From the NCBI GenBank assembly GCA_003551365.1, contig PUMM01000141.1:369-64368 (forward strand): a stretch of DNA of 64,000 bases. The letters are read 5' to 3'. Each line of letters starts with the position of its first letter. Position 1 is the stretch's first letter. The DNA is from Clostridia bacterium (GTDB taxonomy: Bacteria > Bacillota > Sulfobacillia > SLMV01). Positions 2,006 through 63,027 of the stretch are shown in pieces. Below the pieces are notes generated by a model, which was given only the letters and a program-made list of their open reading frames with translations, had not been told where the DNA came from and did no database searches. The position numbers were made by a program, and so were the translations under genes.

Positions 2006-2028
2006 GGCAACGCCACTGGCGGCATCTC

Positions 2029-2073
2029 GCCGGGCGCCGGCTGTACTCTGGTGCACCTGCGCCGGCGCCCGGC
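2029..2073. terminator. 13-bp perfect inverted repeat between convergent genes (candidate bidirectional terminator)
   Basis: GCCGGGCGCCGGC (2029-2041) and GCCGGCGCCCGGC (2061-2073) are exact reverse complements with a 19-nt loop. They lie between the aminotransferase stop (2005) and the Mn catalase stop (2084). No clean U-tract. Confidence 0.5.
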
Positions 2074-2083
2074 TACCCAAAGT

Positions 2084-2800
2084 CTAACTTTTGTCCTGCG
2101 ATTCTGCCGGACCGTCCTGCCCTCTGGATTCTGCGCGAGGATTGTGAAATGCCGGTGGAGTGGGCGAGGGAGGCGCATAGTACTGGCCGGGAGAGGACAG
2201 GTCAAAGTACAGGAGGGCGTCATCGTCCACCCCGAAATCCTCACTCGAGCCGGATTCCTGTACATCATTGAGGGCCTCGCGAAAGAGGGCATTGTGCGCT
2301 TCCTCTCTATTCAGCAGAAAATCTATCGTTTCCCGTACGCCCTCGTCCTCGATCTGTCGGTGCAGATACTCGTATACTACCTTGGCCCGCTGTTCAGCGG
2401 CTATATTGGACAACAGGTCGGCGGCCAGATCGCCTGTGCTGTTGACATAGGCCGCGGTCCAGGGGTGACCGGAGGCAGTGGTCAGCTGTGGTCCGAGTCC
2501 ACCCAACACGTGGGATTGGATGCTGCCCGCCTCCACCTCCCGGGCGTTGAGATCACCTCCATTGAGCAGGCGGACAGTGGCCGCCACCATCTCCATATGC
2601 CCCAGCTCTTCCGATCCGATATCCAGAAAAAGATCGCGGACCCTGGGGTCGGTTGTGCAGAAGCTCTGTGATAGATACTGCATGGCTGCTTTCAGTTCAC
2701 CGTGGGGTCCGCCCAGCTGTTCGGTCAGCAGTGTTGCATATTCCGGGTTGGGACGCTCTATGCGAACCGGATGCAGGAGTTGCTTTTCGTGCCTGAACAT
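2084..2800 (-). CDS. manganese catalase (CotJC/YjqC type)
   Basis: 238-aa ORF; MFRHEKQLLHPV..PEYATLLTEQLGGPHGELKAAMQYLSQ..GSEELGHMEMVA matches the di-Mn catalase helical-bundle signature. GAAAGGAG SD 7 nt upstream of ATG 2800. Confidence 0.85.
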   Translation of the reverse strand: MFRHEKQLLHPVRIERPNPEYATLLTEQLGGPHGELKAAMQYLSQSFCTTDPRVRDLFLDIGSEELGHMEMVAATVRLLNGGDLNAREVEAGSIQSHVLGGLGPQLTTASGHPWTAAYVNSTGDLAADLLSNIAAEQRAKVVYEYLHRQIEDEGVRETIDFLLNREEAHNALFREALNDVQESGSSEDFGVDDDALLYFDLSSPGQYYAPPSPTPPAFHNPRAESRGQDGPAESQDKS

Positions 2801-2870
2801 GCCAGCACTCCTTTCCAGGTGTCATCAGTATGTAGCGTCCCCGCCCGGCATGCTCATGATTCGCCCGCAT

Positions 2871-4712: not shown

Positions 4713-6047
4713 ATGACGGTGCTGCAGTGCATGCGTGGGAGTCACTTCCCCGCGTTGCCGATTATGATTCTATGTGTCATCATGGCCGGCGGTTGTCGAC
4801 CGGCCCCTGCTCCGGAGGAACCAGATGAGCCGGAACTGGAAGAGATGAGGGACATACCTTCCGGGGTGGCTGAAGTCATCGATGGGTTCTGGGGGGGCTT
4901 TGCCGCCGCAGACCGTGATGGCATGGTCGAGTACATGTCGGAGGACCTCAAGGACCAGATGCGTTCGCGAATGGGGCTGCGGGCCCTGGCATCCGAGCAC
5001 CACATAACTCACGATTCCTGTGTATATGCGGGATTTCAGGATTTGAATGTAACCATAGAAGCGGCTGAGGAATCTGCTGACCGAGTATTCGCGGTCGTAG
5101 TCATTGAACACCCACAGATGCCCCGGGACCAGTTTGCTGCTTTCACTGACGCTTTCGAGGATGAGGTCCTGCGTGCGGCACACCGGGATCGGGAGGTTGA
5201 CTTTCGTGCCGAGTTCTCTGCGCTTCTCGATGACTGGGAAGTACCCCGGGGGAAGACCCGGGTTTCCATGGTTCTTGCCCGAGAGCGCAATGGTTTCACC
5301 ATCATCAACACGGATGCTCCCAATAAACTCTTCTCGTCCTTTCAATCCCTGCACCAGACCGCGGTGTGTGATGGTGTGCATGATGCGCGAGTGACGCTGG
5401 AACAGGGTGAACAGTTGGACGTGGATACCCGTGTGTCTGTCGAGTTTCGCGGCGAGAGGATAATGGTGCAGAACGCTCACCTGCCGGAGTGCGCGCTGGA
5501 TACAATGGTCATGGATATTGCGGGACAGGTGGATCTGTCGGTCGAACGCCTGCTGGAGGCTCTGGCCGATTTCCCATTTGATTGGGAGGGTCTGCAGCAC
5601 TACCTGCAGATGGGACCGAAGGATTTTCTGCACAGCGGCCAATTTATCTTTGATTCGGCCCGCAATCAGCTGGCGCTGGCCATGTCCCGTCCCTATGCGG
5701 TGGCCACCCGGGATACTGCCGTGGGGGTGGTTGATGTGCCCACCGGCGAGGTGAACTTCCTTGATGTTGTTCCCGGTACTGTGGACTTTCTATCCTGGTC
5801 GCCGGATGATGAGTATTTGGCCTGTGCCTGGACGGAGTGGGGTCCCGGGTTCGTAGAGGTGGATGTTTATCTTGAGGATGACACCATGCGGCTGACCGAG
5901 GCCCTCGGTGAGGAACTCACGGACCCGATCGATGGCATGCGCTGGTCGGATGATGGCGATGTTCTACACATTGATGTGCGCGACGCAGCAGATGACATCG
6001 AGACGTGGTCGCTGGATGTCCGCGATAGGGATCTCCGGTCCAAGTAG
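4713..6047 (+). CDS. secreted protein / probable lipoprotein of unknown function
   Basis: Track ORF 4686..6047; ATG 4713 follows GGTGGAGGTG. Hydrophobic leader ..ALPIMILCVIMAGGC then a Pro/Glu-rich linker (RPAPAPEEPDEPELEE). C-terminal SWSPDDEYLACAW / RWSDDGDVLHI repeats resemble beta-propeller blades. No family recognised. Confidence 0.6.
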   Translation: MTVLQCMRGSHFPALPIMILCVIMAGGCRPAPAPEEPDEPELEEMRDIPSGVAEVIDGFWGGFAAADRDGMVEYMSEDLKDQMRSRMGLRALASEHHITHDSCVYAGFQDLNVTIEAAEESADRVFAVVVIEHPQMPRDQFAAFTDAFEDEVLRAAHRDREVDFRAEFSALLDDWEVPRGKTRVSMVLARERNGFTIINTDAPNKLFSSFQSLHQTAVCDGVHDARVTLEQGEQLDVDTRVSVEFRGERIMVQNAHLPECALDTMVMDIAGQVDLSVERLLEALADFPFDWEGLQHYLQMGPKDFLHSGQFIFDSARNQLALAMSRPYAVATRDTAVGVVDVPTGEVNFLDVVPGTVDFLSWSPDDEYLACAWTEWGPGFVEVDVYLEDDTMRLTEALGEELTDPIDGMRWSDDGDVLHIDVRDAADDIETWSLDVRDRDLRSK

Positions 6048-40732: not shown

Positions 40733-43700
40733 TCATGAGGCCCCTGCATCTTCGGCGTCCAGTACTTCGAGGAACATCCGCACCAGGTGGGGATCGAACT
40801 GGGAGCCAGCGTTTTCCACAAGCTCCCGCCTGGCTTCATCTTCACTCATGGCGGAGCGATAGGGTCGATCGTTGGTCATGGCATCATACGCGTCGACTAT
40901 GGACAGTATGCGGCATTCTATGGGTATGTCTTCCCCGGAAATTTGCAGCGGATATCCCGTTCCATCCCATCGCTCGTGGTGCTTGAGTATCAGATCGGCA
41001 ACTTTCGCCAGGTCGGGATCGGACAGGGCCACCCGGTAGCCCTTTTCGCAGTGCTGCCGCATCTCCTCCCACTCCTCGTCATTCAGGGGGCCCGGCTTGA
41101 ACAGGATGCGGTCGGGAACACCCACCTTTCCCAGATCATGTACCTGAGCCAGCAGACCGAGGTCGGCGAGCTGCCGGGAATTCAGGTCTGCCCGCTTTCC
41201 CAGCTCCTGGCACAATCTCTGCATGCGTTCGGCGTGTCCCTGCGTTATGTGATCCCTCTCGGCCAGGGCGGCCATCAGGGCGTCGAGTACGCGGCGGCGT
41301 CCGGTTCCCTGCTGCAGCAGCTTGTTGCGGTACATGTCCTGGTCGGCAGCGCGGCGCAGGTCGTGCAGGGAGCGGTCGCGATGCACTGCCGTGGCGAACC
41401 CAAGAGATATACTGATGGGAGTCTTTCGGTCGCGCCGATTATACTCGTGTATCGCGGTCCCAATTTGTCCGGCGATCTCCTCTGCCTCGTCCGCCGTGGT
41501 GCAGGGGAGAATCACACCAAACTCATCTCCGCCGAGGCGCGCGAGTTCGGCCGAGGCGGGAAGATTGTCGTGCAGTATACTGGCGCAGATCTGCAGCAGT
41601 TCATCCCCTGCCGCATGCCCCATGGTGTCATTGACGATTTTCAGGCCGTCCACGTCGGCCGAAAGGAAGGTCAGAGGATAGCTGTCCTTCCCGTCAATCT
41701 GTAGCAACCGGCGTTCAAAGTGGTTGCGGTTGTGCAGGCCGGTTAGCTCGTCGTGAAATGTGAGGTAGTTTATCTGCTGCCGTGCCTCGCTCCGTTCGAG
41801 GGCGCTGAATATGATCTCTCCCGCTATGCGAATTGCCCTGATGTCTTCTTTCTTCCAGGGATCTTGCGCCTGGCCCCCATCCAGACGAATGGTTCCAGCC
41901 AGGCTGGATTCCAGTGCAATGGGTACGCAGAGGATTGCTCCGAGCAGCCCCTCGGAAAAATGCTCGGGCCGCACGCAGGCGTCTTGCGGCAGGTCTTCCG
42001 GATCGGAGACCTGGATCTCCCCGTCACTCTGTACTCTTCTGGTGCAGAAGTGCGGGGTGCTGTCTCCTTTTGGCCGCAGATCATCCGGTAACGGGTCGAC
42101 CTTCGGGGCGCACCACCGGTAGCACCTTTGATAGGCAGCCGACTCCGGGCTCATTCGATTGGCGTAGACCCGGTCCGCACCGGCGAATTCCCCGATGATC
42201 TGCAGGCTCTTCCGCACCGTGTTCTCGATGTCTCTAACCGGCGCGTGCAGGAATAGTCCAGATAGCTCTGCGGCCAGCTCCTGCCGGGCCAGCTCTTCGC
42301 CCAGTGCCTCTTCTGCTTCTTTCCTGTCGGTGATGTCGCGGGCCGCTGCGTAGATGGTGGTACCATGCGGTTCGGAATTCCATTCTATGTAACGGTAGGA
42401 GCCGTCTGCGGCGAGATAGCGGTTGACGAATCCACGACCTCCCTCCTGTCTGTCCAGTTGGGCCATCCTCTTCTGCGTCGCGCTCAGATCTTCTGGGTGG
42501 ATGAAGTCGAGGAACTTCTGGCCTTCCAGGTCCTTTTCGCTGTATCCAAGTATGTGCGCCCAGGCCCGGTTCACCCGCAGAAAGCGTCCTCTTGTATCGG
42601 CTATGCACAGGGGTTCGGGGACCAGATTGAAGTAGGTTTCCAGCTCTTCCGTCTTCTTCTGCAGAGCTCGTCTGATGCGGTGCTGTTCGGTGACATCCGA
42701 GAAAACGATGGTGGCCCCACGCACCTCGCCGTCACTTCCGCAAATCGGAGCGGCGGAGTCGGCAATTTGCCTTTTCTCCCCGCAGCGTGAGGTCAGCACC
42801 GTGTCGTTGGCCAGGCGGATAGTCTGTTCCTGCTGCAGAACTCTGTGCAGGAGGGAGGAGATTGGATCCCCATTGCGATTATCCCAGATGTTGAAGACCT
42901 GTGGCAGGGGACGCCCCATGGCCTCTCCTGAGGGCCAGCCTGTGAGGCGCTCTGCCGCCGGATTCAGCAGGTCCACTCTTCCCTCCGCGTCAGTGGCGAT
43001 CACTCCATCCCCCAGGGAGTGGAGTATGGTGGACAGGTATTCCTTGCTTTCGTGCAGCGCGGCGTCGGCCTGTCGATAGCGGATCATGCGGCCCAGCTGC
43101 AGTGCGATTGCTGCCAGCAACTCTTCTTCCTCGGGCAAAAAAGACGTCTCGCTTCTGCGCAGGCAGACCTCAATAGTCCCCAGGTGTTCTTTTCCCGCCG
43201 CTATTTCCTGACTCAGGCGCGGTGCATCCTCGGACCAGCCGGGGGTGCGGGCCTCGTGTTCTCCCAGGCGAATGCGCGCCTCGGTGGCTGTGGGATTCTG
43301 AAAGGCGGCCGGCAACCTGTTGATGATGCTCATTGCGGTTTGCTTGCGCGTCAGGTGGGTCTCGTCCGGCAGTCGGGATAGTTGGTACAGCAGATCGAGC
43401 TCCTTCTCGCGTTCGCGTAGCTGGTGGCGCATGTGGGATAGCTCATCGTCTGTCCCCTGTCCTCTTTCTGGAGCCGCAAGAGTCACCAGCACCCGCCCTG
43501 TCCCGGGCAGTTTTCGGCAGTGCAGGCTGGTCCGGATCTCGCTTCTGTCGCCAGTACGCAGGGCTGCATCGAAGCGACACTTCCCTTTGTCGTCCAGAGC
43601 TCGATGGCTTTCAATCCAGCCCCCCGCCCTGTCGAGTTGATCGATCTTTTCGCCCCGCAGGTCCTGGTCGCATTTGAGCAACTGATGGGCTGGTTCATTG

Positions 43701-44077
43701 GCGGCTTCGATAACTCCATCTTTGCAGCAGATAATTGCGGGAACATGTGCGCAATGTACCAGCTCGCGCTCGGCAGCGGCCGATGTGGCTTCCTTTCCTT
43801 CCGCCGACAGATATGCCGCGCGGATGAGGCCGGCTGACAGAGCCACGTGCAGGGCTACAGTGATGGGAGCAGAAGATGCGACGAGAGGTGACAGCAGCAC
43901 CCCCAGACAGCCAAGGGCTGCTGTCGTAGCTGCATACACCCGGGCGCCGTGGCGGTAGAACATCGCCGCAGCCAGCAGCGTGAAGGCCGCCAGAGCCGCC
44001 GGGGACGTCCAGGGAGTGAGGACTAGGAGTATGAGTGCTGTTGCGCCGAGAAAGTGAATGTAGATACCCTTTGCCAC
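40733..44077 (-). CDS. membrane-anchored PAS/GAF multi-sensor protein with GGDEF diguanylate cyclase and HD-GYP phosphodiesterase domains
   Basis: 1114 aa. N-terminal hydrophobic helices, several PAS/GAF-like segments, ..HDELTGLHNR..RLGGDEFGVIL.. (GGDEF intact, no RxxD upstream), then ..HDLGKVGVP.. and ..HHERWDGTGYP.. (HD-GYP intact). Confidence 0.85.
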   Translation of the reverse strand: MAKGIYIHFLGATALILLVLTPWTSPAALAAFTLLAAAMFYRHGARVYAATTAALGCLGVLLSPLVASSAPITVALHVALSAGLIRAAYLSAEGKEATSAAAERELVHCAHVPAIICCKDGVIEAANEPAHQLLKCDQDLRGEKIDQLDRAGGWIESHRALDDKGKCRFDAALRTGDRSEIRTSLHCRKLPGTGRVLVTLAAPERGQGTDDELSHMRHQLREREKELDLLYQLSRLPDETHLTRKQTAMSIINRLPAAFQNPTATEARIRLGEHEARTPGWSEDAPRLSQEIAAGKEHLGTIEVCLRRSETSFLPEEEELLAAIALQLGRMIRYRQADAALHESKEYLSTILHSLGDGVIATDAEGRVDLLNPAAERLTGWPSGEAMGRPLPQVFNIWDNRNGDPISSLLHRVLQQEQTIRLANDTVLTSRCGEKRQIADSAAPICGSDGEVRGATIVFSDVTEQHRIRRALQKKTEELETYFNLVPEPLCIADTRGRFLRVNRAWAHILGYSEKDLEGQKFLDFIHPEDLSATQKRMAQLDRQEGGRGFVNRYLAADGSYRYIEWNSEPHGTTIYAAARDITDRKEAEEALGEELARQELAAELSGLFLHAPVRDIENTVRKSLQIIGEFAGADRVYANRMSPESAAYQRCYRWCAPKVDPLPDDLRPKGDSTPHFCTRRVQSDGEIQVSDPEDLPQDACVRPEHFSEGLLGAILCVPIALESSLAGTIRLDGGQAQDPWKKEDIRAIRIAGEIIFSALERSEARQQINYLTFHDELTGLHNRNHFERRLLQIDGKDSYPLTFLSADVDGLKIVNDTMGHAAGDELLQICASILHDNLPASAELARLGGDEFGVILPCTTADEAEEIAGQIGTAIHEYNRRDRKTPISISLGFATAVHRDRSLHDLRRAADQDMYRNKLLQQGTGRRRVLDALMAALAERDHITQGHAERMQRLCQELGKRADLNSRQLADLGLLAQVHDLGKVGVPDRILFKPGPLNDEEWEEMRQHCEKGYRVALSDPDLAKVADLILKHHERWDGTGYPLQISGEDIPIECRILSIVDAYDAMTNDRPYRSAMSEDEARRELVENAGSQFDPHLVRMFLEVLDAEDAGAS

Positions 44078-44431
44078 AGCTCGAGCCTCCCCATTCTGAC
44101 GTAACCCGTCAATTTCCGTATCATAACTCTTCTATTTCACAGACGCAATCCCTTTACGCTTTCCGTTTATGGGGTGCTGCCGTGAGTAACGGGCAGACTG
44201 GCTGTTTCCCACCGGTGGTCATGCAGGAAATATGTGCTTCGGGCTCGCGCCGACCTGCCTGCGCCCACTCGTGCGAGGCCGCAGGCGTAGCCCGGGCGTA
44301 TTTGCTGCGGCAGATGATATACTAAAAAATAGAGAAGAATCCGGACAGATGGGGATTCCTCCCTGTGACCGATGTGCGGAAACGGGAAGTGCTTTGGATT
44401 GCGCTTTTGCGCATTTCACCGATGAGTGACT

Positions 44432-45577
44432 ATGGAGAGGAGTGATGAGGGTTTGGCTGATGTGGCGCGGGGACATGGGGTTGATCTGCAGGACCTGTCC
44501 GCGGGGACGGCCGAAGAGTATGCTGACAGGGTCGCGCATCTGGCAGCTACGGTTGATGAGATAATGGCTGGGCAGGAAGATGTGGAGGACCTCATCGGTG
44601 GGAACCCACTGAAGATGATGCGGGAGAATCACCGGCATCATGCCCGCTTCATGGCTACAGTGTTGACCCTGCGGGATGGGCACCTGCTGGCTTGTACCAT
44701 GCCTTGGGTGTTCCGGACCTACATGAACCGCGGGTTTGCTCCCGAGTATTTCCCCCGGGTTCTTTCCGCTTTCTGTCAGGCGGTGGATATCCACCTTTCT
44801 CCGGCAGCAGCCCGTTCAGCAAGATCCGTTTACCGTTGGATGAGCGAAAACTACGAGAGATTCCTGCGGGAATCGCGGTGCGCCCCGGACGACGATCTGC
44901 CGGAGTCTGCCGTGTGGGCGGATCTGCTGGCGGCATTTCTGCGGGCGCTGCTGCGGGGTGATCACCAGGAATGCCTGCGGCTGGCCGAGGATTCTGTGCC
45001 ATCTGCAGCTGATGTGCCGGATTTTTACCTGCAGGTCATCGGGCCCGCTCTGCTGGAGATAGGAGAGCGATGGGAGCAGAATCGTATTTCGGTGACGGAT
45101 GAGCATCTGGCTTCGTCCATCGTGTCCCGTGTGATGACCTCCTTTCATCTGCGCTTTATGCGCGGCGAATACAGTTGGGGCCGAGCGGTAGTGACGGCGG
45201 TGGCCGACGAGTATCACGAAATAGGAGCCCGCATGGTGGCCGACCTGCTGGAGTTTGACGGGTGGGATGTCACCTTTTTGGGGGCAGATACGCCGAGTGA
45301 GGAGCTCAAACGTATGCTCCGGCGCCACCCCCCTTTTTTCCTCGGTCTTTCGGTGACCATGCCATTCAACGTCGATCGGGTCAGGCGGCTAATTGGAGAG
45401 ATCAGGGGGCATGAAGAACTGGACGATATGTACATAGCCGTCGGCGGACAGGTGTTTTCGCGGCATCCCCATCTGGTGCAGGTGGTAGATGCTGATGCTG
45501 TCGCGACGGACGGCAGTGAGGCGGTGCGTATAGCCCGAGCCTGGTGGGAGGGAGCTCAATGTGATGAAGCGCAGTGA
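44432..45577 (+). CDS. cobalamin-binding protein with CarH-type light-sensor signature (unknown N-domain + B12-binding_2 cap + B12-binding Rossmann domain)
   Basis: Track ORF 44426..45577 (numbering from 44426). IGERW216EQNRISVTDE226H227LAS = Wx9EH. VTAVADEYH264EIGARMV = [D/E]xHxxG. GLSVT and VGG blocks follow. No DNA-binding domain recognised. Confidence 0.75.
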   Translation: MERSDEGLADVARGHGVDLQDLSAGTAEEYADRVAHLAATVDEIMAGQEDVEDLIGGNPLKMMRENHRHHARFMATVLTLRDGHLLACTMPWVFRTYMNRGFAPEYFPRVLSAFCQAVDIHLSPAAARSARSVYRWMSENYERFLRESRCAPDDDLPESAVWADLLAAFLRALLRGDHQECLRLAEDSVPSAADVPDFYLQVIGPALLEIGERWEQNRISVTDEHLASSIVSRVMTSFHLRFMRGEYSWGRAVVTAVADEYHEIGARMVADLLEFDGWDVTFLGADTPSEELKRMLRRHPPFFLGLSVTMPFNVDRVRRLIGEIRGHEELDDMYIAVGGQVFSRHPHLVQVVDADAVATDGSEAVRIARAWWEGAQCDEAQ

Positions 45578-46511
45578 AGATCTGCTGGGACGGTGCCCCG
45601 AGCCGGTTGCCCGCTATCTGCACAAACTCACGGACACCTCCCTCGCCGTCTTGGATGGTGATGGGGTGGTTGTGCAGTGCAATGAGGCCTTTGCCCGGCT
45701 GTTCGGGGCAGACCCGTCTACAGTCGTCGGAGACCGGGCGGAGCGCTACCTTTCCGGTGCAGATGGAATCGGTCTGTCGGATGGACGGCAGGCCATCCGG
45801 CGACGTTTCAACCTGCAGTGCGGCCCGGCACGGGGAACAGCATTGGACTGTCACGTTTTCCACTGGCGAGATGGCTGCGTACTCTTCGGGCGCAGTACCT
45901 TCGAATCTGATGAGGAGGTATTTCAGCAGCTGACCAGGCTGAACAATGAGCTATCGAACCAATCGCGCGAGTTGGCCAAAAAGAACGCCGAGCTGCTGCG
46001 GGCCAATGAGCAGATCGAACAGCTGATGCGGACTGATCATCTGACCGGCCTCGCCAATCGCCGCCACTTCCTCGAGCATCTGGAGAAAGCTGTTGCAGAC
46101 GCTCATCGGCACGGCAGGTCGCTTTCTCTGGCCGCTCTGGATCTCGATCACTTCAAGGAAGTTAACGATGAGCACGGCCACGCCGCCGGTGATGATCTGT
46201 TGGCGGCCCTCGGTGAGGTGCTGCAGGAGCAGACCCGCAAGGAAGACCTCCCCGCACGCATCGGCGGGGAGGAGTTCATGGTCTTACTGGTCGGAGCGGA
46301 CTGCAACCGCGCCGCGGTTTTTGCCGATCGTCTGCGGCGCGAAGTGGCCTCAATCGAACTCTCCTGTGCCGACATTTGTGTGACGGCCAGCCTGGGCGTG
46401 GCCGAACTGGGCTGCGGGGAATCTCCCGAAGACCTCATGCTGCGGGCGGACCGGGCCCTGTATCGCTCCAAAGAGGCAGGCCGCAATCGCATGACCGTCG
46501 CCGGTACATGA
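45564..46511 (+). CDS. PAS-like / coiled-coil / GGDEF diguanylate cyclase
   Basis: Track ORF 45561..46511; ATG 45564 sits 9 nt after GGGAGGGAG and overlaps the 3' end of the B12 gene by 14 nt. ..TDHLTGLANRRHF..RKEDLPARIGGEEFMVLL.. (GGEEF plus RxxD I-site). Confidence 0.85.
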   Translation: MKRSEDLLGRCPEPVARYLHKLTDTSLAVLDGDGVVVQCNEAFARLFGADPSTVVGDRAERYLSGADGIGLSDGRQAIRRRFNLQCGPARGTALDCHVFHWRDGCVLFGRSTFESDEEVFQQLTRLNNELSNQSRELAKKNAELLRANEQIEQLMRTDHLTGLANRRHFLEHLEKAVADAHRHGRSLSLAALDLDHFKEVNDEHGHAAGDDLLAALGEVLQEQTRKEDLPARIGGEEFMVLLVGADCNRAAVFADRLRREVASIELSCADICVTASLGVAELGCGESPEDLMLRADRALYRSKEAGRNRMTVAGT

Positions 46512-47051: not shown

Positions 47052-47448
47052 TTCTCTCACCCCCTCGTTTCTATTTCGTCGTGCCGCCCGTCAGTACCTT
47101 CTCGCGTCAGGGGGATGTTAGGGGTGGGAGGGAAGAGGACATATGGTGGATGAGGGAGAAGAAATTACCTGTAGGATCCGGTGTGAGCACGTCCCTGCTC
47201 CTTTTTGCTGAGGCTGACATTCTGGCATTGGCGCTCCCGGCTGCACGGCGGGTGCGTGGTCAGGTAGGCCGGTATGTCCGGGGGGATTAAATCTGCTGAC
47301 GGGGCTAATGTGGCGCCTGGGGGCAGTGCAGATAACCTGCAAACCGCCCCGACTGCAGACAGCGTGCCGCCGGGTACCGGCAGTTCGAATTCGAGCATGA
47401 TTGCCCACCGGTTGTGGGTTTGATTGGCTACCGGAAGGAGATACGGGA

Positions 47449-49899
47449 GTGAGCTACGACGGTGATCGCGAGCTGGAAGATCTGGCCGACTGCATTCTCC
47501 GGGTGGCCGAACAGGCAGATGGAGAAAGAGATTTCCGACGTCGGATCATATCTATCCTGCGCGCACATGACCGCGGCTTTGCAGGGATGCATTCCGGGGA
47601 CAGCTGTGCGCAGCGGGAGAGGCAGAACTGTATACGGAAGCTGCACGAAGTTGCCGTACAGTTGGAGGACATCAATTGCGAACAGCAGGTGTACGAGCTG
47701 GCAGTGGCCGCGGTAGACGACCTCCTGGGTCTGGCAGCCGCAGTCAGCGAGGTGGCGGAGGGGGATACCTCGGTGCTGCGTGCCGAATCGCGAGCGTGGT
47801 CGGAGGAAGCGGCTCGCCCCAATTCTGTATACCGCCGCCTGAGGAATGAGAGCTTCCGTACCGGCCGCACCCAGTACCTCGCCGATATGCACAAGCATCC
47901 GGAGATGGTCACGGACCACCCGGCGCATCGTTCGGTGGTGAGTGTCCCGATCGGGGAGTTCGGCGTGCTTCAGTGTGCCTCCGGAGAAGAGGATGCTCCT
48001 GGCAGCGAAGTGGTTGAGGTCTTGGAGATACTGGCTCTTCATCTGGCTGCGGCAGTGCGGAGGATCCGCATCTGGCGACGGGGGAAACGAGAAAGGTCCG
48101 AGGCGGAGAGGCGGGTCTCGGAGTATGCCATGATTTTTTCCGGTATGCAGGATGGGATGTTTCTCGTGGAATCACGCAGTGATGCTGCGTTTTCTCTTCT
48201 GCGGGCCAATAGTGCCCTGGAGCGAATGACGGATGGAGGCCGCACCCGCGCCCGGGCGGGGTCGCCAGTTGACATGTTCGGCCCGGATATGCGTGGCGCG
48301 TTCACCCGTCATCTGCGCACATGTGCGGTTCAACAGGAGCCGGTCTCCTTTTTCGTCGAACTGCACACTGGTGATGGAGTGCGCTTCCTGTCGGTGCAGC
48401 TTTCACCCCTCCCGGCGGTGTCCAGTGATGTGAAGCGGCTCCTCGGGTCGGTTTGTGACCGGACCGCCGAAAGATGGACCGAGCGCGCTCTGGAGGAGAG
48501 TGAGGAGAAGTACCGGACCCTGGTTCACAACATCAATGATGCAATACTGATCGTGCAGGGTGGCCGGTGTGTCTTCGCCAACCCGGCGGCGGGCACGTTG
48601 ATGGGGTGCAGGTCCAAAGACCTGGTGGGTATGCAATGGCGTTGTATTGTGCACCCGGCCGAACGTGCCCGGGTGGATCGGATGGCTCGCGCGAGAAAGC
48701 GTGGAGATCCTGTTCCGGACATTTATGAAAGTGCCGTGGTTGATCATCGTGGCCGGGACGTTGACGTGGAATTTAATGTGAGTAGGACTACCTATCTGGG
48801 GCAGAGTGCCGTGTTCATCAGTATGCGGGATATCGGTAGACGGAAGAAGGTGGAGCGCAGGCTGCGTTACCTCAGCTTTCACGACCAGCTCACAGACCTT
48901 TATAACCGTGCCTACTTTGAGAACGAGCTCCGTCGTCTGGATGTTTGGCGCCAGCTCCCCCTTTCCGTCATCCTGGCTGACGTCAATGGTCTGAAGTTGA
49001 TCAATGACGTATTCGGCCACCAGGAGGGAGACCGGCTGCTGCGGGAGGTCGCCGATATACTGCGCAGCTCGGCGCGCGAGGAGGATGTGGTGGCCAGAAC
49101 GGGAGGAGATGAATTTGCCATCCTGATTCCACAGACCTCGGCCGGAAATGCGGAGGAAATCATGCGTCGGATTCACCGGCGCTGTGCGGAGTGGGATGAT
49201 GAATCCTTCTCTGTATCAGTGTCAATGGGCGTTGCTACCAAATCGGAGGAGGGCGAGGACGTCTGGGAAGTCTTCGGCCGGGCGGAGGAGCGGATGTATC
49301 AGGATAAGATGCTGCGGCGGGACAGTGCCAGAAATGCCATCATCAAATCACTGCGGGGTGCCCTGGAGGAAAAAACACAGGAGACCAGCGAGCACATGAG
49401 GCGACTGGAGGAACTGGGTGTGGCAGTGGGGCAGCGGCTGGGGCTGGCGGAGAGCAGTCTGAGCAATTTGGCCCTGCTGGCCCAATTGCATGACATCGGT
49501 AAGGTGGCCGTTCCGGCGTCGGTACTCGAGAAGGAAGGCCCTCTAGATCCCGCCGAGCGGGCTGAGATCCAGAGGCACACGGAGATCGGTTATCGTATCG
49601 CCAACAACAGCGTCGATCTGGCCTCCATCTCTGACTCCATCCTTTCTCACCACGAGTGGTTTGACGGCAGCGGGTATCCACGAGGATTGGCGGGGGATGC
49701 CATCCCATTGCTGGCGCGGATCCTCGCAGTGGTGGATGCCTTTGATGCCATGACCAGTGAGCGTCCTTACTGTGCGGCGATGAGTCGTGAGGAGGCGCTG
49801 GCTGAGGTGCGGGATGGGGCGGGAACTCAGTTTGATCCGGAGGTGGCGGGGGTCTTTCTCGCCATGATGGAGCACTCTGACAGGGATGCCTCTGGCTGA
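47449..49899 (+). CDS. GAF/PAS multi-sensor protein with GGDEF and HD-GYP domains
   Basis: Track ORF 47401..49899; GTG 47449 follows GGAAGGAG. ..HDQLTDLYNR..REEDVVARTGGDEFAILIP.. (GGDEF plus RxxD), ..HDIGKVAVP.. and ..HHEWFDGSGYPRG.. (HD-GYP). Confidence 0.85.
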   Translation: MSYDGDRELEDLADCILRVAEQADGERDFRRRIISILRAHDRGFAGMHSGDSCAQRERQNCIRKLHEVAVQLEDINCEQQVYELAVAAVDDLLGLAAAVSEVAEGDTSVLRAESRAWSEEAARPNSVYRRLRNESFRTGRTQYLADMHKHPEMVTDHPAHRSVVSVPIGEFGVLQCASGEEDAPGSEVVEVLEILALHLAAAVRRIRIWRRGKRERSEAERRVSEYAMIFSGMQDGMFLVESRSDAAFSLLRANSALERMTDGGRTRARAGSPVDMFGPDMRGAFTRHLRTCAVQQEPVSFFVELHTGDGVRFLSVQLSPLPAVSSDVKRLLGSVCDRTAERWTERALEESEEKYRTLVHNINDAILIVQGGRCVFANPAAGTLMGCRSKDLVGMQWRCIVHPAERARVDRMARARKRGDPVPDIYESAVVDHRGRDVDVEFNVSRTTYLGQSAVFISMRDIGRRKKVERRLRYLSFHDQLTDLYNRAYFENELRRLDVWRQLPLSVILADVNGLKLINDVFGHQEGDRLLREVADILRSSAREEDVVARTGGDEFAILIPQTSAGNAEEIMRRIHRRCAEWDDESFSVSVSMGVATKSEEGEDVWEVFGRAEERMYQDKMLRRDSARNAIIKSLRGALEEKTQETSEHMRRLEELGVAVGQRLGLAESSLSNLALLAQLHDIGKVAVPASVLEKEGPLDPAERAEIQRHTEIGYRIANNSVDLASISDSILSHHEWFDGSGYPRGLAGDAIPLLARILAVVDAFDAMTSERPYCAAMSREEALAEVRDGAGTQFDPEVAGVFLAMMEHSDRDASG

Positions 49900-57466: not shown

Positions 57467-58651
57467 TTAGTTGCTCTCTTCTTCTGGGGTCAGTTCCACG
57501 TCCACCTCAACGTCCTCATCGACAATTTGCTGCTGCCCCGTCCACGTCTCATGCTCGTCATGACTGATGCGGACCTCATAGTCATCGGCCGGCACATTGC
57601 ATATGTCGAAGGTACCATCTGGGTTCGACTCTGCAGCCAGCTCGTATTCTTCGAAATCGTAAGTATCTCCATCGAGGCGCACACACGCGTCTGCAATCCC
57701 GCTCGCGTCCGGGTCAGTTACTGTGCCGGTGACCCTAAAAGTGGGCCGGATGACATAGGATCGAGCCACGATGTCGAGATCATCATCCAGGATGCCTTTG
57801 ATCTTATAGGTGCCCGGCGGATTATCTGCATCGAACTCGACAGTGAATTCTACGGTGTCGCTGTGGAATGCCGTTTCCGGGGGCATGGGGTCAATATCAA
57901 CATTGGCAGAGAAGTCCGGATCCTCTGGATAGGTGACGGTGAGATCCAGCTCCGCGTCATCTGATGCATCGTAAGTGACGATCTTCGCCCTGACGGTAGC
58001 TTCGTCTCCTGATTGGTCCTCGAAATGATAGCTGTTGGATTCACCTGTGTCCGGGTGAAGCAGCTGCATTCCCCTTATGGATGGCGCGGGAGGTACGGGG
58101 CTCCGGAACTTGATCACTTCCCCCGATGCCTGGTCGTTCGGGACTGTATTGAGCAGGCGTATGTCCGAGCTAAGATCGTGCTCGCGTCCGCTCAGTCGCT
58201 GTGTGCCCGATGCCGTGAACTGGAGCAGTTCGGATCCTTTCTCGGCATGGAACGAGAGATTGAGATCAATTCTGTCACCGATTTTGCTGAGGTGTCGTCT
58301 GTCCTCATCGTCTATCCGGTGCACCAGATAGCCGTCTTCATCAATGAACAGGTACTCATAGGAGTCATCACCGGAACCACCCTCATCGATGTCGCTGCGT
58401 ACATCTATCTCTTCCGCATAACGTATCTTGTCGTTTACGTGATCAGCCACCAGGCGGAGATTCTGCTGCAGATCAGCCTGTTCTTCTCCCGTTCCGAAGG
58501 CCGTGGAGGCATAGGTGAGTATCAGGAAAATGAGCGGCAGAATCATAAGGAGGATTGCCATGGCTAGGATGGCCTCGAGCAGGCTCAATCCCCTCTCTCT
58601 CGCCGCGATTGTCTGGCAAAGCCGTATTGCTCGCGTCATTTCCCGTATCAC
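57467..58651 (-). CDS. large minor pilin / pseudopilin with C-terminal carboxypeptidase-regulatory-like (Ig-like) domain
   Basis: Class III signal ..RERG|LSLLEAILAMAILLMILPLIFLIL. C-terminal ..RVTGTVTDPDASGIADACVRLDGDTYD..NPDGTFDICNVPADDYEVRISH.. matches the CarboxypepD_reg pattern. Confidence 0.7.
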   Translation of the reverse strand: MIREMTRAIRLCQTIAARERGLSLLEAILAMAILLMILPLIFLILTYASTAFGTGEEQADLQQNLRLVADHVNDKIRYAEEIDVRSDIDEGGSGDDSYEYLFIDEDGYLVHRIDDEDRRHLSKIGDRIDLNLSFHAEKGSELLQFTASGTQRLSGREHDLSSDIRLLNTVPNDQASGEVIKFRSPVPPAPSIRGMQLLHPDTGESNSYHFEDQSGDEATVRAKIVTYDASDDAELDLTVTYPEDPDFSANVDIDPMPPETAFHSDTVEFTVEFDADNPPGTYKIKGILDDDLDIVARSYVIRPTFRVTGTVTDPDASGIADACVRLDGDTYDFEEYELAAESNPDGTFDICNVPADDYEVRISHDEHETWTGQQQIVDEDVEVDVELTPEEESN

Positions 58652-59011
58652 CTATTCTGGGGGCAGGTATATGGTTATGGAAGTCATGCCCCTGCTCCAT
58701 GTTGATTTGATTGAGGCCTGTTTGCCGGTAGATTCAATGTTGCGTGGGTCGTCAGTACCAAACCTGACCTCCGGAAAACCCGATTTGTCGTCCGGGTCAT
58801 CATCCTCTTTCTGTCTGAGTTCGTGAACCCGGGTTTCGGCCTCGTGTATAGTCTTTGTCTTTTCACCCGCCAGAAATATCTCCGTGAAGGCGTGACTGAT
58901 CATTGGTCCGAAGGCCACTGCAATGAGCAGCAGGAGAGTAATGGCAACTATTACTTCCGGTAGAGTGAAGCCCATATCTGTTCGGATTTTCTGTGCTCGC
59001 ATCAGTACCAC
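58652..59011 (-). CDS. prepilin-type minor pilin
   Basis: ..TDMG|FTLPEVIVAITLLLLIAVAF is a canonical prepilin cleavage/methylation motif with Glu+5. Overlaps the upstream gene by 10 nt and abuts the downstream one. Confidence 0.75.
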   Translation of the reverse strand: MVLMRAQKIRTDMGFTLPEVIVAITLLLLIAVAFGPMISHAFTEIFLAGEKTKTIHEAETRVHELRQKEDDDPDDKSGFPEVRFGTDDPRNIESTGKQASIKSTWSRGMTSITIYLPPE

Positions 59012-60051
59012 TGCCCAATCTGGTAGATCATGATATCGAGATCGTCCAGATGCTTTTCCATGTTTAGCCCCTGCATGGTGATGTTACCGAGCACTTCGAG
59101 TTCATCGGCGATCACCATCCCGTGAAAAACTACATTGCCTCCCAGCCTGACCGTTGCACCTGGGCCATAAATGGCGCCGTGAAACTCCGGTGTTCCCGTC
59201 ATCTCGAGAGTCTCTCCGTCACTCATATATATGACGACAAAAGAGTCCTCCCATTCAGTGGAAAACGTGCCGCTGCCGTCGAAGTCTTCGCTGACGATCA
59301 GGCGCAGGGTTCCCTGTCCTTCCGGCACTATTTCCGAATTCCCGGTAGCTGAGAAGCTCCCAGCCTCGAGGATGAGTTCATCCTGGTCTGCGAAGTCGAT
59401 GGTCAGGGTTGAGTTGCCGCCGATGTCTATATGGTCGGTCGTGTAGCCATCGCTGTCACCGGTGGCCTGGAGGGTTTGCGAGTCAGTGATGGAGGGGATT
59501 TCCTCCAGATCACCATCGGGGGGCTCGTGATCGAATTTCATCTCCTCGTAGTCCAGTTCATCCTGGAAGATGCTCTCGTCGGCGTTCATCTTCTCTTCGC
59601 AGGATATAAAAACCGTTCCGAATATTTCGGCTGCTGCCCCCGCACCGTCAATTTCGGTGGCATACAGTGCGAAATCATCGTGGGTGGTGAGTAGGAGGGA
59701 CATGGTTTCGGAGATACCGTCCACGGTCCCGGTCGACTCAATGATGATTTCGCTGTCATCAGCATAGACAGTTACGTTGAAGTATCCCTCCCCGAGGGGG
59801 ATATCCTCCGATTCGGACTTGTGATCCAGGAAGTGTCTTACGGCTGAGGGGTTGGTCAGTAGATGTTCTGCCACGGCCTCAGCTCCCGATCGAGCCAGGA
59901 AGTGAGCCTGCATGTGTTTCTCCAAACGGTCCACCTGTGTTCTTTCGGCGGAGGCGTAGGTCCACAGAGCGGTACCAAAGATCAGTGCGGCGGCCATCAC
60001 GATGATGACCGCCGGTAATGCTAGGCCGCTCTGGTTTCGGATGTTCAGCAT
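59002..60051 (-). CDS. PilX-like pilus-associated protein (hydrophobic N-terminus without Glu+5, repetitive beta-rich C-terminus)
   Basis: MLNIRNQSGLALPAVIIVMAAALIFGTALWTY.. resembles the PilX_N type. The C-terminal ..GAIYGPGATVRLGGNVVFHGMVIADELEVLGNITM.. suggests a beta-helix-like repeat. Confidence 0.55.
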   Translation of the reverse strand: MLNIRNQSGLALPAVIIVMAAALIFGTALWTYASAERTQVDRLEKHMQAHFLARSGAEAVAEHLLTNPSAVRHFLDHKSESEDIPLGEGYFNVTVYADDSEIIIESTGTVDGISETMSLLLTTHDDFALYATEIDGAGAAAEIFGTVFISCEEKMNADESIFQDELDYEEMKFDHEPPDGDLEEIPSITDSQTLQATGDSDGYTTDHIDIGGNSTLTIDFADQDELILEAGSFSATGNSEIVPEGQGTLRLIVSEDFDGSGTFSTEWEDSFVVIYMSDGETLEMTGTPEFHGAIYGPGATVRLGGNVVFHGMVIADELEVLGNITMQGLNMEKHLDDLDIMIYQIGQWY

Positions 60052-60193
60052 GCAGGCCCTCCTTTCTGGGTGACACTAGCTCAGGGACCCTCGTTAGTAG
60101 GCAGGGTTACGAGCAAATGGTCTGGGTTAAGACAGATCACAGCTTCCAGTTACTTAGTGTTAGTTTGCCTTCATCAATCTTGGCGAGATTCGG

Positions 60194-60601
60194 CTATTCC
60201 GGCGGGCATTCCTCACGTTCACACTTGACGGTGAACTCGCCGGTCTGAGTGTCTATCTCTGTAATCTCGTAGCCATCGGAGTTGCCACCCTCATCTTCCT
60301 CACTCCACGGACACAATGGGACTTCCTCCAAATAAGGCCCATAGTTGACGCCTCCAACATCAACGGTATCTGCAAGGTCTTCCACCTCGATATTCTCGGG
60401 TAGTTGGCCCGCCTCGGAAAAAAGAGTGGTTACTGCCCCTCGGACAGTGCGTTGATTTGCCCGGCATGCTGACTCTCGTGCCCGCTCTTGTATTCCCCCA
60501 TAAATCGGTATCGCAATCGCCACCAGAATCCCTATAATGACAACTACCACCATAAGCTCTACCAGGGTAAAGCCTCGTTCTCGTTGCACTAGCTTCATCA
60601 T
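60194..60601 (-). CDS. type IV major pilin candidate
   Basis: Track ORF 60194..60694; ATG 60601 follows GGGAGGAG. MMKLVQRERG|FTLVELMVVVVIIGILVAIAIP is a textbook type IVa prepilin N-terminus. Acidic globular domain with four Cys. Confidence 0.85.
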   Translation of the reverse strand: MMKLVQRERGFTLVELMVVVVIIGILVAIAIPIYGGIQERARESACRANQRTVRGAVTTLFSEAGQLPENIEVEDLADTVDVGGVNYGPYLEEVPLCPWSEEDEGGNSDGYEITEIDTQTGEFTVKCEREECPPE

Positions 60602-60868
60602 TTCCGATTCACTCCTCCCATCGCGGTGAAAAGGCATTCGAGTCTGCAGACCAGATGAAATACACTCAAATCCTGCAGTTTTACCCACCGACATTGCGGA
60701 TTCTATGCTTTCAAAGCTCCCCGATCAAAACTGCAGCGACGGACCGTGAGATGGACGCATCGGTCAGATGGGGGCAATCAGCCCTGCCGGGCTACCGGGA
60801 GGAGAGACTCGCAGGAGGGAGAGGGGTGGCACGAAGGAAGAAATGCCAGAATAAAAAACGAGCCCCTT

Positions 60869-60960
60869 CCGTTCGGCAGCCCGGCCGTCCTAGCCTATTG
60901 GCCTTAGACCCGCGGCTTTGCGCCCACACCTTTCGGTGCGTTTGCCCTTGTCGCGTGCAG
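60869..60960 (-). promoter_or_regulatory. c-di-GMP-I (GEMM-I) riboswitch aptamer in the pilin operon leader
   Basis: Reverse strand reads CACGCGACAAGGGCAAACGCACCGAAAGGUGUGGGCGCAAAGCCGCGGGUCUAAGGCCAAUAGGCUAGGACGGCCGGGCUGCCGAACGG. It contains the conserved GGGCAAAC, a GAAA-capped 6-bp helix (CGCACC/GGUGUG), GCGCAAAGCC, a UCUAAG receptor-like loop and 3' GGGCUGCCGA. A U6 tract lies at 60853-60858. Confidence 0.85.
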
Positions 60961-60973
60961 CGACTCGCCTATC

Positions 60974-61005
60974 ATTATTATCGACATGTAACCATCTTAA
61001 ATTTA
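60974..61005 (-). promoter_or_regulatory. candidate promoter for the riboswitch-pilin transcript
   Basis: AT-rich patch; the reverse strand reads ..TTTAAGATGGTTACATGTCGATAATAATGATAGGCGAG... The TAATAAT -10-like element (60974-60980) sits just upstream of the aptamer 5' flank. The -35 is weak. Confidence 0.25.
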
Positions 61006-61193
61006 CCGCATCCAAGCGGGAGTTGCAAGGGGAATTTGACATTGACGCACTTGACTGTACACCCTCTCCCCAATTCCGGCTTTCAGGTGCTTCCTCCGTA
61101 TAGCTTCTATCGAGATACCGGGCCCCATCTGCCAGTATATTTTCGGAGTCAGTAGCCCGAAATGATATACTCTAAATTGGGAGGTGTGCTCAC

Positions 61194-61475
61194 ATGCCCC
61201 GGCGCCGTCATGACCGTTCACCGGGCGACCCGCGAGAGCGAGATGATTCCGAAGCACTACCGTCGTTGTCAGGTCTCTGGGCCAGTTTCCTCCGCAGCCC
61301 CAGGGCGATAATCGGCGCAATAATTCTCGCCATAATCATCTTGATCGCCATCTTTGCCCCCTGGATTGCGCCGCACGATCCGCATGAAATCCACGAGAAA
61401 GGGAATGCCGAGCCCTTTGATGAGCGTGCGGCCAACTCCCCTCAGAATCGGCTCGTCGGTTGCAGTATCCGATGA
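61194..61475 (+). pseudogene. orphan OppC/DppC N-terminal fragment (93-aa ORF)
   Basis: ..LWASFLRSPRAIIGAIILAIIILIAIFAPWIAPHDPHE.. is the OppC_N pattern (compare 27516-28376: LGVAIFLLFVLIAVFAPYIAPYDPME). The ORF stops before the permease core. It has its own GGGAGG SD, so it might still be translated. Confidence 0.5.
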
Positions 61476-61632
61476 TCTGCAGTACATATACGCCAGCGAT
61501 TTCGGAGAAGGCTCGAAATGACTCCCGCATTTTGCGCCCGCCGGCTATCGCTGTACAATGGAAGCACTGCATTGCGAGTTCCCGGAGATCCATGGTTCGT
61601 GCCGACTACTGTAACCTCGGGAAAGGAGAACC

Positions 61633-63027
61633 ATGATGCCGTCCCTGTCAACCAAAAGGCTCGGGTGCTGGTTGCGGTCGATACCCGACACAGATCAAAC
61701 TCGCACATATCGCGCACTCCTGGTCATTGGAGCAACCGCTTATCTGGTGTTCGGCCTGGTCTACCGGATCTCGTTCGAAAAACCCGATCCTCTTCTCATG
61801 ACCGAACGACTGGTCATGGTTGCCCTGTGCGTAGTGCTTCTGGTCCTTTCGTATGTCAGCCGGAAGGTGCATCGACTACTCCCGGCTCTTCTGATCGGGT
61901 TGACCGCACTTGCCACGTTCCGTACACTGCACGCCGCACATCTGCATCAGTACCGACTCGATGTGGCGATGAGCATTGTGGTGGTAGTTGTCCTGGTCAA
62001 CCTCATATTTGATCCGGGTCCGCCCGTTCTGGCCTTCAACGTAATGGTAATCGCCGGGTCCGGAATATCGGCGATCCTGGCCGACGAATTTCTGCTGAGT
62101 AGATGGGCCTACCTCCTGTCGCTCGCCTTCGTCTCCGCCGCTTCGTATCACATTGCCTGCCAGCGGTATCGCACTGCGCGTCAGCTCGCCGATAGTCGCG
62201 AAACCTATCGTCAGCTGTTCACCAATATGACTGCAGGATTTGCCCACTGTCGCCCCGTCGCCGCCGGATCCGGTGAGGTAGTCGACTACCGGATTATCGA
62301 ATGCAATGCGGCATTTGCGGCGCTTCTGGGCGCATCACCGGCGGAGATCTCCGGAGAAAACTGGTTCGATCTCTACCCCGATTCGCATGGAGTTGCCGCC
62401 TGTATGCGGTCAGCTCTGAGGGGTGAGCAGACAGACCGCCTTGACTGGTTTCTGGATCCCCCGGGGAGATGGCTGGGAGTCACGGCCTACTCGCCGCGCG
62501 AGGGAGAGGTGGCGGTGCTGCTAACCGATGTGACTGAGAGGCGCGAAAGAGAGGACGAGGCGGTGAACCGCAGCTTCCGCGATCCCATCACCGATCTGTA
62601 CAATCGTCGTTTCTTTGATGAGGAACTGCAGCGCCTGGATACAGCGCGGCAGCTGCCCATCAGCATCGTCCTGCTGGACATCAATGGGCTGAAGGCCATC
62701 AATGATGCTCATGGCCATCGGTGGGGGGATGAAGTCATCCGCTCCATCGGAAGGGTGCTGGATGATGCGACGCGTGAAGAGGATATTGTGGCCCGCATAG
62801 GCGGCGACGAATTTGCTCTTCTGCTTCCTCTAACTGATGCGGAGGAAGCATCCAGCATCTGTGTGCGCATCCGTGAGGGGGTACGGTCGCTCGACCGGGA
62901 GGGTGTGCTGCCGTTTTCCGTGGGTGCCGCAGTGGGTTGTGCCACCAAGTATCGGGAAGGTGAAGAAATAGCAGATCTTTTCGATATAGCCGACCGAGCT
63001 ATGTACCGGGACAAAGAGTCCACCTGA
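61633..63027 (+). CDS. membrane-anchored PAS-GGDEF diguanylate cyclase
   Basis: ATG follows AAAGGAG. About 5-6 N-terminal TM helices and a PAS-like segment, then ..RDPITDLYNRRFF..REEDIVARIGGDEFALLLP.. (GGDEF plus RxxD). Confidence 0.85.
   Translation: MMPSLSTKRLGCWLRSIPDTDQTRTYRALLVIGATAYLVFGLVYRISFEKPDPLLMTERLVMVALCVVLLVLSYVSRKVHRLLPALLIGLTALATFRTLHAAHLHQYRLDVAMSIVVVVVLVNLIFDPGPPVLAFNVMVIAGSGISAILADEFLLSRWAYLLSLAFVSAASYHIACQRYRTARQLADSRETYRQLFTNMTAGFAHCRPVAAGSGEVVDYRIIECNAAFAALLGASPAEISGENWFDLYPDSHGVAACMRSALRGEQTDRLDWFLDPPGRWLGVTAYSPREGEVAVLLTDVTERREREDEAVNRSFRDPITDLYNRRFFDEELQRLDTARQLPISIVLLDINGLKAINDAHGHRWGDEVIRSIGRVLDDATREEDIVARIGGDEFALLLPLTDAEEASSICVRIREGVRSLDREGVLPFSVGAAVGCATKYREGEEIADLFDIADRAMYRDKEST

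Follow-up and report, generated by a model that had tools for sequence, protein, structure and literature searches.

The 64,000-nucleotide (nt) stretch of contig PUMM01000141.1 from Clostridia bacterium, referred to here as the window, carries on its minus strand a type IV pilin operon with a long leader, and the locus raises the question of whether this leader holds a riboswitch, which ligand such an element would bind, and whether binding would raise or lower expression of the pilus genes. The element is confirmed from its sequence as a canonical class I cyclic di-GMP (c-di-GMP) riboswitch in the pilin operon leader, and it is read, with a probability of roughly 55%, as an OFF switch that would lower expression of the operon at high c-di-GMP.

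The identity of the aptamer was settled by a cmscan search of the full 64 kb window against all 4227 Rfam families, in which RF01051 (c-di-GMP-I, or GEMM-I) was the single family above threshold. The match lies at 60872-60956 on the minus strand and scores 81.7 bits versus a gathering score of 35 (E = 1.6e-14 for the whole window), covering model positions 1-87 of 87 with a posterior of 0.99 and without truncation; a permissive, sensitive local rescan of 60100-61700 left this result unchanged and gave nothing credible beyond RF01051. A preliminary description of the locus had named a covariance model (CM) search with RF01051 beforehand as the test of its riboswitch assignment, and the score stands far over the gathering value. 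The likeness to the Vc2 aptamer of Vibrio cholerae in that description was not used as evidence, the CM score being the test. The aptamer string given there occurs exactly on the minus strand, where it spans 89 nt at 60869-60957 and does not reach the end given as 60960, and the shared elements listed there are all present in the CM alignment, namely GGCAAAC, a 6-bp P2 helix with a GAAA cap, CGCAAAGCC, a P3 helix with CUAAG/UAGGA, and GGGCUGCCGAA. The invariant blocks in this alignment are GGCAAAC, CGCAAAGCC, and GCUGCCGAA. P2 occupies 60925-60940 with its GAAA loop at 60931-60934, and P3 occupies 60878-60917 with a receptor-type internal loop whose strands (CUAAG/UAGGA) depart from the consensus (CUAAg/uAuGa) by one substitution. 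Across 11 related aptamers, 13 of the 19 predicted pairs show compensatory changes, with both P2 and P3 covarying. The fold of 60840-60975 alone has a z-score of -0.92, which is uninformative for an aptamer. The element is a member of RF01051 in every sequence-level respect, it had been called, correctly, not new in kind, and any Rfam-based annotation pipeline would detect it automatically.

The nucleotides equivalent to the ligand contacts G20, A47, and C92 of Vc2 are G60946, A60919, and C60876 (model positions 11, 38, and 83), if the Vc2 numbering is carried over to the model on the Vc2 structure and on the equivalence of G11 of Cd1 with G20 of Vc2 (PMC9262584). Because the canonical G20/A47/C92 set is present and RF01051 was kept in clan competition, the predicted ligand is c-di-GMP and not cyclic GMP-AMP (cGAMP). 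A GEMM-Ib identity, with 3',3'-cGAMP as ligand, was rejected since it needs an A at the G20 equivalent, where the window has G60946; the G20 position contributes to selectivity without filtering ligands absolutely (PMC9262584), and given this non-absolute selectivity the element may bind some cGAMP. The c-di-GMP-I-GGC variant (RF03167) has the consensus CGCGAA with a G at A47 and was rejected on the CGCAAA of the window and on clan competition, which favours RF01051, while a UAU-variant reading was rejected on the binding-site nucleotides.

How the bound state would be read out depends on the short sequences that flank the aptamer. The aptamer ends 13 nt before a run of six uridines (U6, 60853-60858), a candidate intrinsic termination site, and because only these 13 nt separate them a terminator of its own would not fit in between. 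The 3' flank GGAAGGGGCUCG (60859-60870), here called the H strand, directly precedes U6 and has in the pairing analyses three possible partners, which are the 5' flank of the aptamer, the P3 3' strand, and a downstream CGAGUCUCUCC. The preliminary description had proposed that a 5' flank CGAGUC pairs with GGCUCG directly before the U tract, with GGCUCG at 60859-60864 and U6 at 60853-60858 as found here; the 5' flank is present as described, at 60962-60967 and hence one base off the 60963-60968 given, and the predicted pairing proves to be only the core of an extended, longer P1 helix, which is seen again in relatives. The 5' strand of this closing helix spans 60962-60970 (core CGAGUC at 60967-60962) and runs upstream through GG and an A-rich AAUGAUA able to pair with the U tract, the helix continuing where AAUGAUAGG can form G.U and A-U pairs with the U tract. 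The duplex of the 5' and 3' flanks reaches -20.0 kcal/mol versus -13.5 +/- 3.2 kcal/mol for shuffles (p = 0.03), and the closing-helix pairs have a probability of 0.53-0.62 in the ensemble. When the aptamer is swapped for a GAAA loop, the closing helix and U6 form a terminator-like hairpin of 9 bp (including G.U) at -12.7 kcal/mol. A simple terminator scan around the element reported none, its blank result here being due to an allowed loop of only up to 8 nt. The closing helix has a competitor on its own 5' side, the hairpin H0 (60950-60964, with GUCGC at 60964-60960, the loop UGCAC, and GCGAC at 60954-60950), which sequesters three nt of the closing-helix 5' strand and, in its 3' arm, the P1 5' nucleotides of the aptamer. 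H0 is found in the minimum free energy (MFE) structures with a pair probability of 0.43, and it is near-isoenergetic with the closing helix (-35.9 vs. -35.3 to -37.4 kcal/mol).

A second layer of possible control, absent from the preliminary description, lies further downstream in the leader, where an unbiased repeat search returned an alternative-fold element at 60786-60811 built on two inverted repeats, I1 (13/15) and I2 (11/12). Within it, CGAGUCUCUCCUCCC (60811-60797) could pair either with the H strand or with the Shine-Dalgarno (SD) region of the pilin, GGGAGGAGUGAAUCG (60605-60619), to which it is complementary at 13 of 15 positions, and CGGUAGCCCGGC (60797-60786) is complementary at 11 of 12 positions to the aptamer 3' strand at 60885-60874. 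The MFE structure of the full leader includes the resulting hairpin (60885-60859 : 60811-60786), the anti-aptamer duplex has -49.0 kcal/mol versus -34.5 +/- 3.3 kcal/mol for dinucleotide shuffles (0 of 1000 shuffles being as good), and the alternative fold exceeds the aptamer fold in stability by 15 kcal/mol. A corresponding RNAduplex comparison of the whole aptamer with the whole leader in relatives was discarded, as inputs over 100 nt give unrealistic bulged duplexes.

These parts can be assembled into an OFF mechanism in which H0 would form first during transcription and capture the P1 5' nucleotides along with some of the 5' flank. Binding of c-di-GMP would then let P1 form and release the 5' flank, P1 would zip outward into a long irregular helix with the core CGAGUC/GGCUCG that ends directly at U6, and transcription would stop at about 60853 with the aptamer enclosed in the "loop" of the terminator. 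Without ligand, the polymerase would read through, and in the read-through RNA the element at 60811-60786 would pair with the aptamer 3' strand and the H strand and lock the aptamer open. The same pairing would occupy the CU-rich anti-SD sequence and leave the pilin SD free, while in ligand-bound transcripts that escape termination the CU-rich element would be free to mask the SD. If the closing helix is the terminator, the ligand completes it and the switch is OFF; both layers, termination and SD masking, would therefore lower pilin expression at high c-di-GMP, and the downstream anti-aptamer/anti-SD element fits an OFF sign. The specific proposal that the terminator is the P1 of the aptamer itself, extended by the flanks to the U tract with the 85-nt aptamer as its loop and gated by H0, is tentative and is held with less confidence than the OFF sign.

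The comparative evidence comes from the contigs of 10 pilin homologues that were examined for GEMM-I aptamers (loci are given L numbers where they need to be told apart). An aptamer matching RF01051 or RF03167 lies directly upstream of the pilin in five loci (L087, L088, L209, L210/L211, and L213/L214), one further locus (L212) has an aptamer elsewhere in its pilus cluster, and no GEMM-I aptamer was present in the other four; the aptamer-pilin association thus recurs, since 5/10 homologous Bacillota pilin loci carry one. In a genome collection queried with a pilin alignment, the matches listed are mostly unrelated pilins with the common N-terminal motif, and the best of them (L004) has a GEMM-I aptamer upstream, the only one to do so among 20 scanned loci from the matches listed. 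The closest relative, L088, keeps the order of pilin and DUF7305 gene seen in the window, and its sequencing run has a number near that of a run containing the operon of the window itself (SRR490155 and SRR490150). The L088 aptamer and its 5' flank are near-identical to those of the window, with the flank AGGCGRGUCGCU kept, and the DNA on either side, including that upstream of the flank, is not conserved. The H0 stem is also kept in L088, with a different loop.

The layout of a flank-to-flank helix followed by a U-rich tract is the same between clades, with different flank sequences. The window pairs CGAGUC with GGCUCG before U6, L088 pairs GGCGGGUCG with CGACGCGCU before the U-rich tract UUUGUUUCU, L213 pairs CUUUUC with GAAAAG before U7, L087a pairs AAACCUGA with UCAGGGUUU before U6, L210 and L209b pair AACCUG with CAGG before UAUUUU, and L087c pairs AUAGCUC with GGGCUAU before UUUU. 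The helix is part of the MFE structure in L088, L213, L209b, and L087c, and the 5' strand again has clade-specific competitors (GUCGC/GCGAC in the window and L088, CUUUUC/GAAAGG in L213, and CAGGU/ACCUG in L087a, L210, and L209b). No local hairpin able to use the U tract was found in L088, in L213, or in the L087a/L210/L209b clade, and L087c has both the flank-to-flank helix and the local-hairpin type. In L212 (p = 0.89) and L209a (p = 0.74), no complementarity between the 5' and 3' flanks was detected; L212 has a perfect 10-bp terminator formed from the P3 3' strand and followed by U6, a clear ON-type layout, and L209a has a separate classical terminator. Read by eye, the L087b and L209a aptamers, which belong to the same pilus clusters, have separate terminators and appear to be of the OFF type. 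Taken together, the relatives tip the choice toward the flank-helix (OFF) reading, not conclusively.

Several further observations were made in these loci. In L210 (380-390/491-501), L209 (2764-2774/2876-2886), and L087 (258-282/380-404), the aptamer 5' tail UGACGAUAAUG is matched by CAUUAUCGUCA, a perfect complement of 11 nt that lies ~25 nt after the aptamer just beyond the U-rich tract, is followed by an AAAGGRGGUG motif, and looks like a conserved anti-P1 element. The aptamers of L213 (945-1031), L214 (271-357), and L004 (2825-2899) score best with RF03167 (65-70 bits) despite their CGCAAA, an assignment that probably reflects a P3 loop without the receptor and not an altered binding site. 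L087 contains tandem c-di-GMP-I aptamers ~300 nt apart (2101-2189 and 2481-2571) upstream of a 536-aa pilin-like/CarboxypepD_reg gene, with a match to a group II intron D1-D4 fragment (1663-1773, 43 bits) just upstream of them, and a third aptamer precedes the pilin of the same cluster. In L212, a PAS-GGDEF gene (1906-3381) stands immediately upstream of the pilin and is co-directional with it, unlike the divergent one in the window, and the c-di-GMP-I aptamer (5646-5795) precedes a 165-aa gene and then a secretin-like gene. A metagenome scan with the DNA pattern GCGACAARGGCAAAC...GGNCGCAAAGCC returned mostly high-G+C, non-orthologous loci with a ribosome binding site directly after the aptamer; a U run is present in 10 of 102 matches, and these loci look like translational switches.

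The same aptamer could serve an ON switch of quite different construction, in which the H strand of the ligand-free RNA would invade the base of P3 and form a local hairpin (60859-60883, with CGGGCU-G-CC at 60883-60875, the loop GAACGGAA, and GG-GGCUCG at 60866-60859) that runs into U6 as a terminator. Because this hairpin uses the P3 3' strand and C92, it excludes the folded aptamer; the ligand-bound aptamer would keep both, the hairpin would be blocked and the operon transcribed, and pairing of the 5' flank with the H strand would merely reinforce P1. Two helices thus end at U6, the closing helix (-12.7 kcal/mol when closed by a tetraloop) and the local hairpin (-10.3 kcal/mol in isolation, 0 nt before U6), the latter belonging to the MFE structure of the transcript truncated at 60859. 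The layout resembles the compact GEMM-Ib ON switch of Geobacter metallireducens pilM (PMC9262584), L212 in a related pilus cluster carries the unambiguous version noted above, and c-di-GMP is expected to promote pili and adhesion (PMC6366702). Against this, the pairs of the local hairpin are mostly near 0.2 in probability (0.18-0.24 for 7 of 8 pairs, 0.08 for the outermost) versus ~0.6 for the closing helix, and in L088, in L213, and in the L087a/L210/L209b clade the U-rich tract right after the aptamer is retained with the flank helix only and no such hairpin. An ON switch would also leave the conserved 5' flank, H0, and the anti-SD sequence beside the anti-aptamer element with no role, and a ligand-bound P1 zipped to the U tract should itself terminate; this construction is judged less probable than the OFF switch. 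A genuine aptamer that exerts no termination control at U6 is improbable. Such an element would act only post-transcriptionally, with the balance between the aptamer fold and the 60885-60859 : 60811-60786 fold setting SD access or mRNA stability, or it would be a copy that is in decay or has no regulatory role, the pilin having a promoter of its own at ~60700-60728. The very strong anti-aptamer complementarity located past the U tract is in favour of such a view, as are the promoter-like TTGATC-17-TAGAAT between riboswitch and ATG, the class I riboswitches of V. cholerae, which are not termination-based, and the existence of non-functional c-di-GMP riboswitches in C. difficile (PMC6366702). 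A purely thermodynamic switch would nevertheless be hard to flip, because the alternative fold is the more stable by 15 kcal/mol, and a U-rich tract immediately follows the closing helix in seven related loci. Decay fits poorly with an aptamer that is intact at all conserved positions and scores far over the threshold, and the promoter-like site, one of 3 found versus 1.0 +/- 1.0 expected, is weak evidence.

The OFF reading, which is also the sign of all functional class I c-di-GMP riboswitches of C. difficile (PMC6366702), has to be held against a number of observations that weigh on the other side. On the H strand, the local hairpin and the closing helix are about equal (-11.4 vs. -12.0 kcal/mol), and the MFE structure of the truncated transcript contains the former. 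The flank-complementarity tests are individually weak (p = 0.03-0.25), and the loci were classified after inspection, several of them being interrelated. The duplex between the leader and the SD is not significant on its own (p = 0.078), and in constrained RNAfold runs the SD is paired with CU-rich stretches whichever state is imposed, which gives no discrimination. The closing helix cannot form if transcription begins downstream of 60962, and the ligand has a window of only ~20 nt for binding before the U tract; a 2024 review regards ligand-completed terminators as possible in principle and, given such a short binding window, as unlikely to be found (PMC10907184). Moreover, c-di-GMP usually promotes type IV pili, and the C. 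difficile pilA1 riboswitch is an ON switch (PMC6366702).

Some features of the leader bear on where its transcripts begin. Two AT-rich promoter candidates were read by eye upstream of the element within 60977-61027 of the minus strand, namely GATAAT (60982-60977) and TTGCAA-17-TAAATT (61027-60999); both fall under the 9/12 threshold of the promoter scan, whose matches around the element are at background level. The promoter-like TTGATC-17-TAGAAT (60728-60700) is flanked by a perfect 10-bp inverted repeat, CUGCAGUUUU / AAAACUGCAG, whose arms are 44 nt apart at 60673-60736 on the minus strand. A 9-mer of the 5' flank, GUCGCUGCA (60964-60956), recurs at 60740-60732 and could pair with the aptamer 5' tail.

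The operon behind this leader begins at the pilin ATG (60601), which is on the same strand 270 nt downstream of the aptamer and 252 nt past the U tract with no credible gene in between, in agreement with the preliminary description; open reading frames (ORFs) that overlap the element, such as 60655-61155 on the plus strand and 60890-61042 on the minus strand, were treated as spurious. The first gene (60194-60601) encodes a 135-aa major prepilin (Pfam N_methyl, E = 2.3e-9) with the leader peptide MMKLVQRERG and cleavage before FTLVELMVVV; it has 2828 homologues, the best of them 45-58% identical and mostly from Bacillota and Clostridia metagenome-assembled genomes, and its start codon agrees with the homologue N-termini. 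The second gene (59002-60051) encodes a 349-aa DUF7305 protein (Pfam PF23981, E = 3e-15) with a hydrophobic N-terminus, PilX-like or adhesin-like. A search of 5.8 billion clustered proteins detected for it a single distant homologue at 30% identity, whereas the neighbouring pilin has thousands, and orthologous operons sought through this protein came down to that one homologue on short contigs (L002/L003) without the leader. A third gene (58652-59011; 119 aa, minor-pilin-like, weak N_methyl at E = 0.0024) overlaps its neighbours by a few bases in an operon-like manner. The fourth (57467-58651, 394 aa) matches PF13620 (E = 5.7e-10) and weakly N_methyl, is considered a putative tip adhesin because it combines a pilin-like N-terminus with a CarboxypepD_reg domain, and has counterparts downstream of the pilin in L087 and L210. 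All four genes are on the minus strand. The ORFs sampled from the rest of the window included no pilus assembly ATPase and no other gene of the machinery.

Genes for c-di-GMP turnover are close by, as had been described, with four GGDEF or GGDEF+HD-GYP genes within 20 kb according to domain searches. They encode a PAS-GGDEF protein (61633-63027, plus strand, divergent from the riboswitch), a PAS-GAF-GGDEF-HD_5 protein (40733-44077, minus strand), a second PAS-GGDEF protein (45561-46511, plus strand), and a GAF-PAS-GGDEF-HD_5 protein (47401-49899, plus strand), the two HD_5 proteins being of the GGDEF+HD-GYP type. A B12-binding-domain protein (44426-45577, plus strand) is encoded directly upstream of, and overlapping, the GGDEF gene at 45561-46511, and the pair may represent an input linked to B12 or to light. 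The riboswitch and the divergent GGDEF gene are separated by a 660-bp spacer, in which a 93-aa ORF (61194-61475, plus strand) contains only the N-terminal transmembrane domain of OppC (PF12911, E = 1.7e-14) followed by a stop and looks like a truncated gene remnant. That the riboswitch is functionally tied to the GGDEF/HD-GYP genes nearby is suggested by proximity only.

With this assignment, an organism that is uncultured and probably belongs to the Bacillota has a four-gene pilin/putative adhesin operon under predicted c-di-GMP control, and this supplies a useful regulatory link in a neighbourhood that holds four genes of c-di-GMP turnover. If the OFF reading with its extended P1 is true, the element would be a naturally occurring case of a terminator that the bound ligand directly completes, and c-di-GMP would act on this type IV pilin/adhesin operon as a repressing and not an inducing signal, both points being contrary to the usual expectations. 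The expression platform is the part that could be new, a judgement made without a family-wide survey of RF01051; the mechanism classification of Barrick and Breaker has no "direct termination" class (PMC2258182).

Riboswitches for c-di-GMP ahead of pilus or adhesin genes are established, with the class II element of pilA1, the class I Bc2 before an adhesin gene, and the GEMM-Ib element of Geobacter pilM (PMC6366702, PMC9262584). Vc2 and Cd1, both in RF01051, share with the window the scaffold of P2 GAAA tetraloop and P3 receptor and the G20/A47/C92 set, and they likewise occupy 5' leaders of genes for surface structures or motility. Vc2 differs in acting on translation and not on termination (PMC6366702), whereas Cd1 is a transcriptional OFF switch, as proposed for the window (PMC9262584, PMC6366702), and differs in having a separate downstream terminator with an aptamer-competing antiterminator, the decision falling ~60 nt after the aptamer (PMC9262584). 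In the window, only ~13 nt lead from aptamer to U tract, and every possible terminator helix includes aptamer or flank sequence.

The pilM element of G. metallireducens has the same aptamer fold upstream of pilus genes and a compact transcriptional platform with its decision ~25 nt after the aptamer, and its terminator combines the P3 3' strand and the ligand-pairing C with a short strand further downstream, a pairing that is possible likewise in the window (PMC9262584). It differs in its ligand, which is cGAMP, compared with the G at the selectivity position in the window, and it is an ON switch, whereas the comparative evidence for the window favours OFF. The pilM element is not known to have a counterpart to the 5'-flank complement of the H strand, the pilM sequence itself not having been compared. 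Cdi-2-4 upstream of C. difficile pilA1 is likewise in the leader of a major type IV pilin of a Gram-positive anaerobe and acts by transcription termination (PMC6366702), but it has a class II aptamer of unrelated fold and is ON, while the window has a class I aptamer and is probably OFF. A likeness at the level of design only is offered by the "terminator-embedded aptamer" of the HMP-PP (thiS) riboswitch, in which aptamer and intrinsic terminator are merged in one unit (PMC6478431); there the terminator stem supplies the aptamer and the ligand prevents termination (ON), whereas in the window the aptamer would sit in the loop and the ligand would complete the stem (OFF). Set beside these systems, the element is ordinary in kind, and its compact read-out is the sole unusual part.

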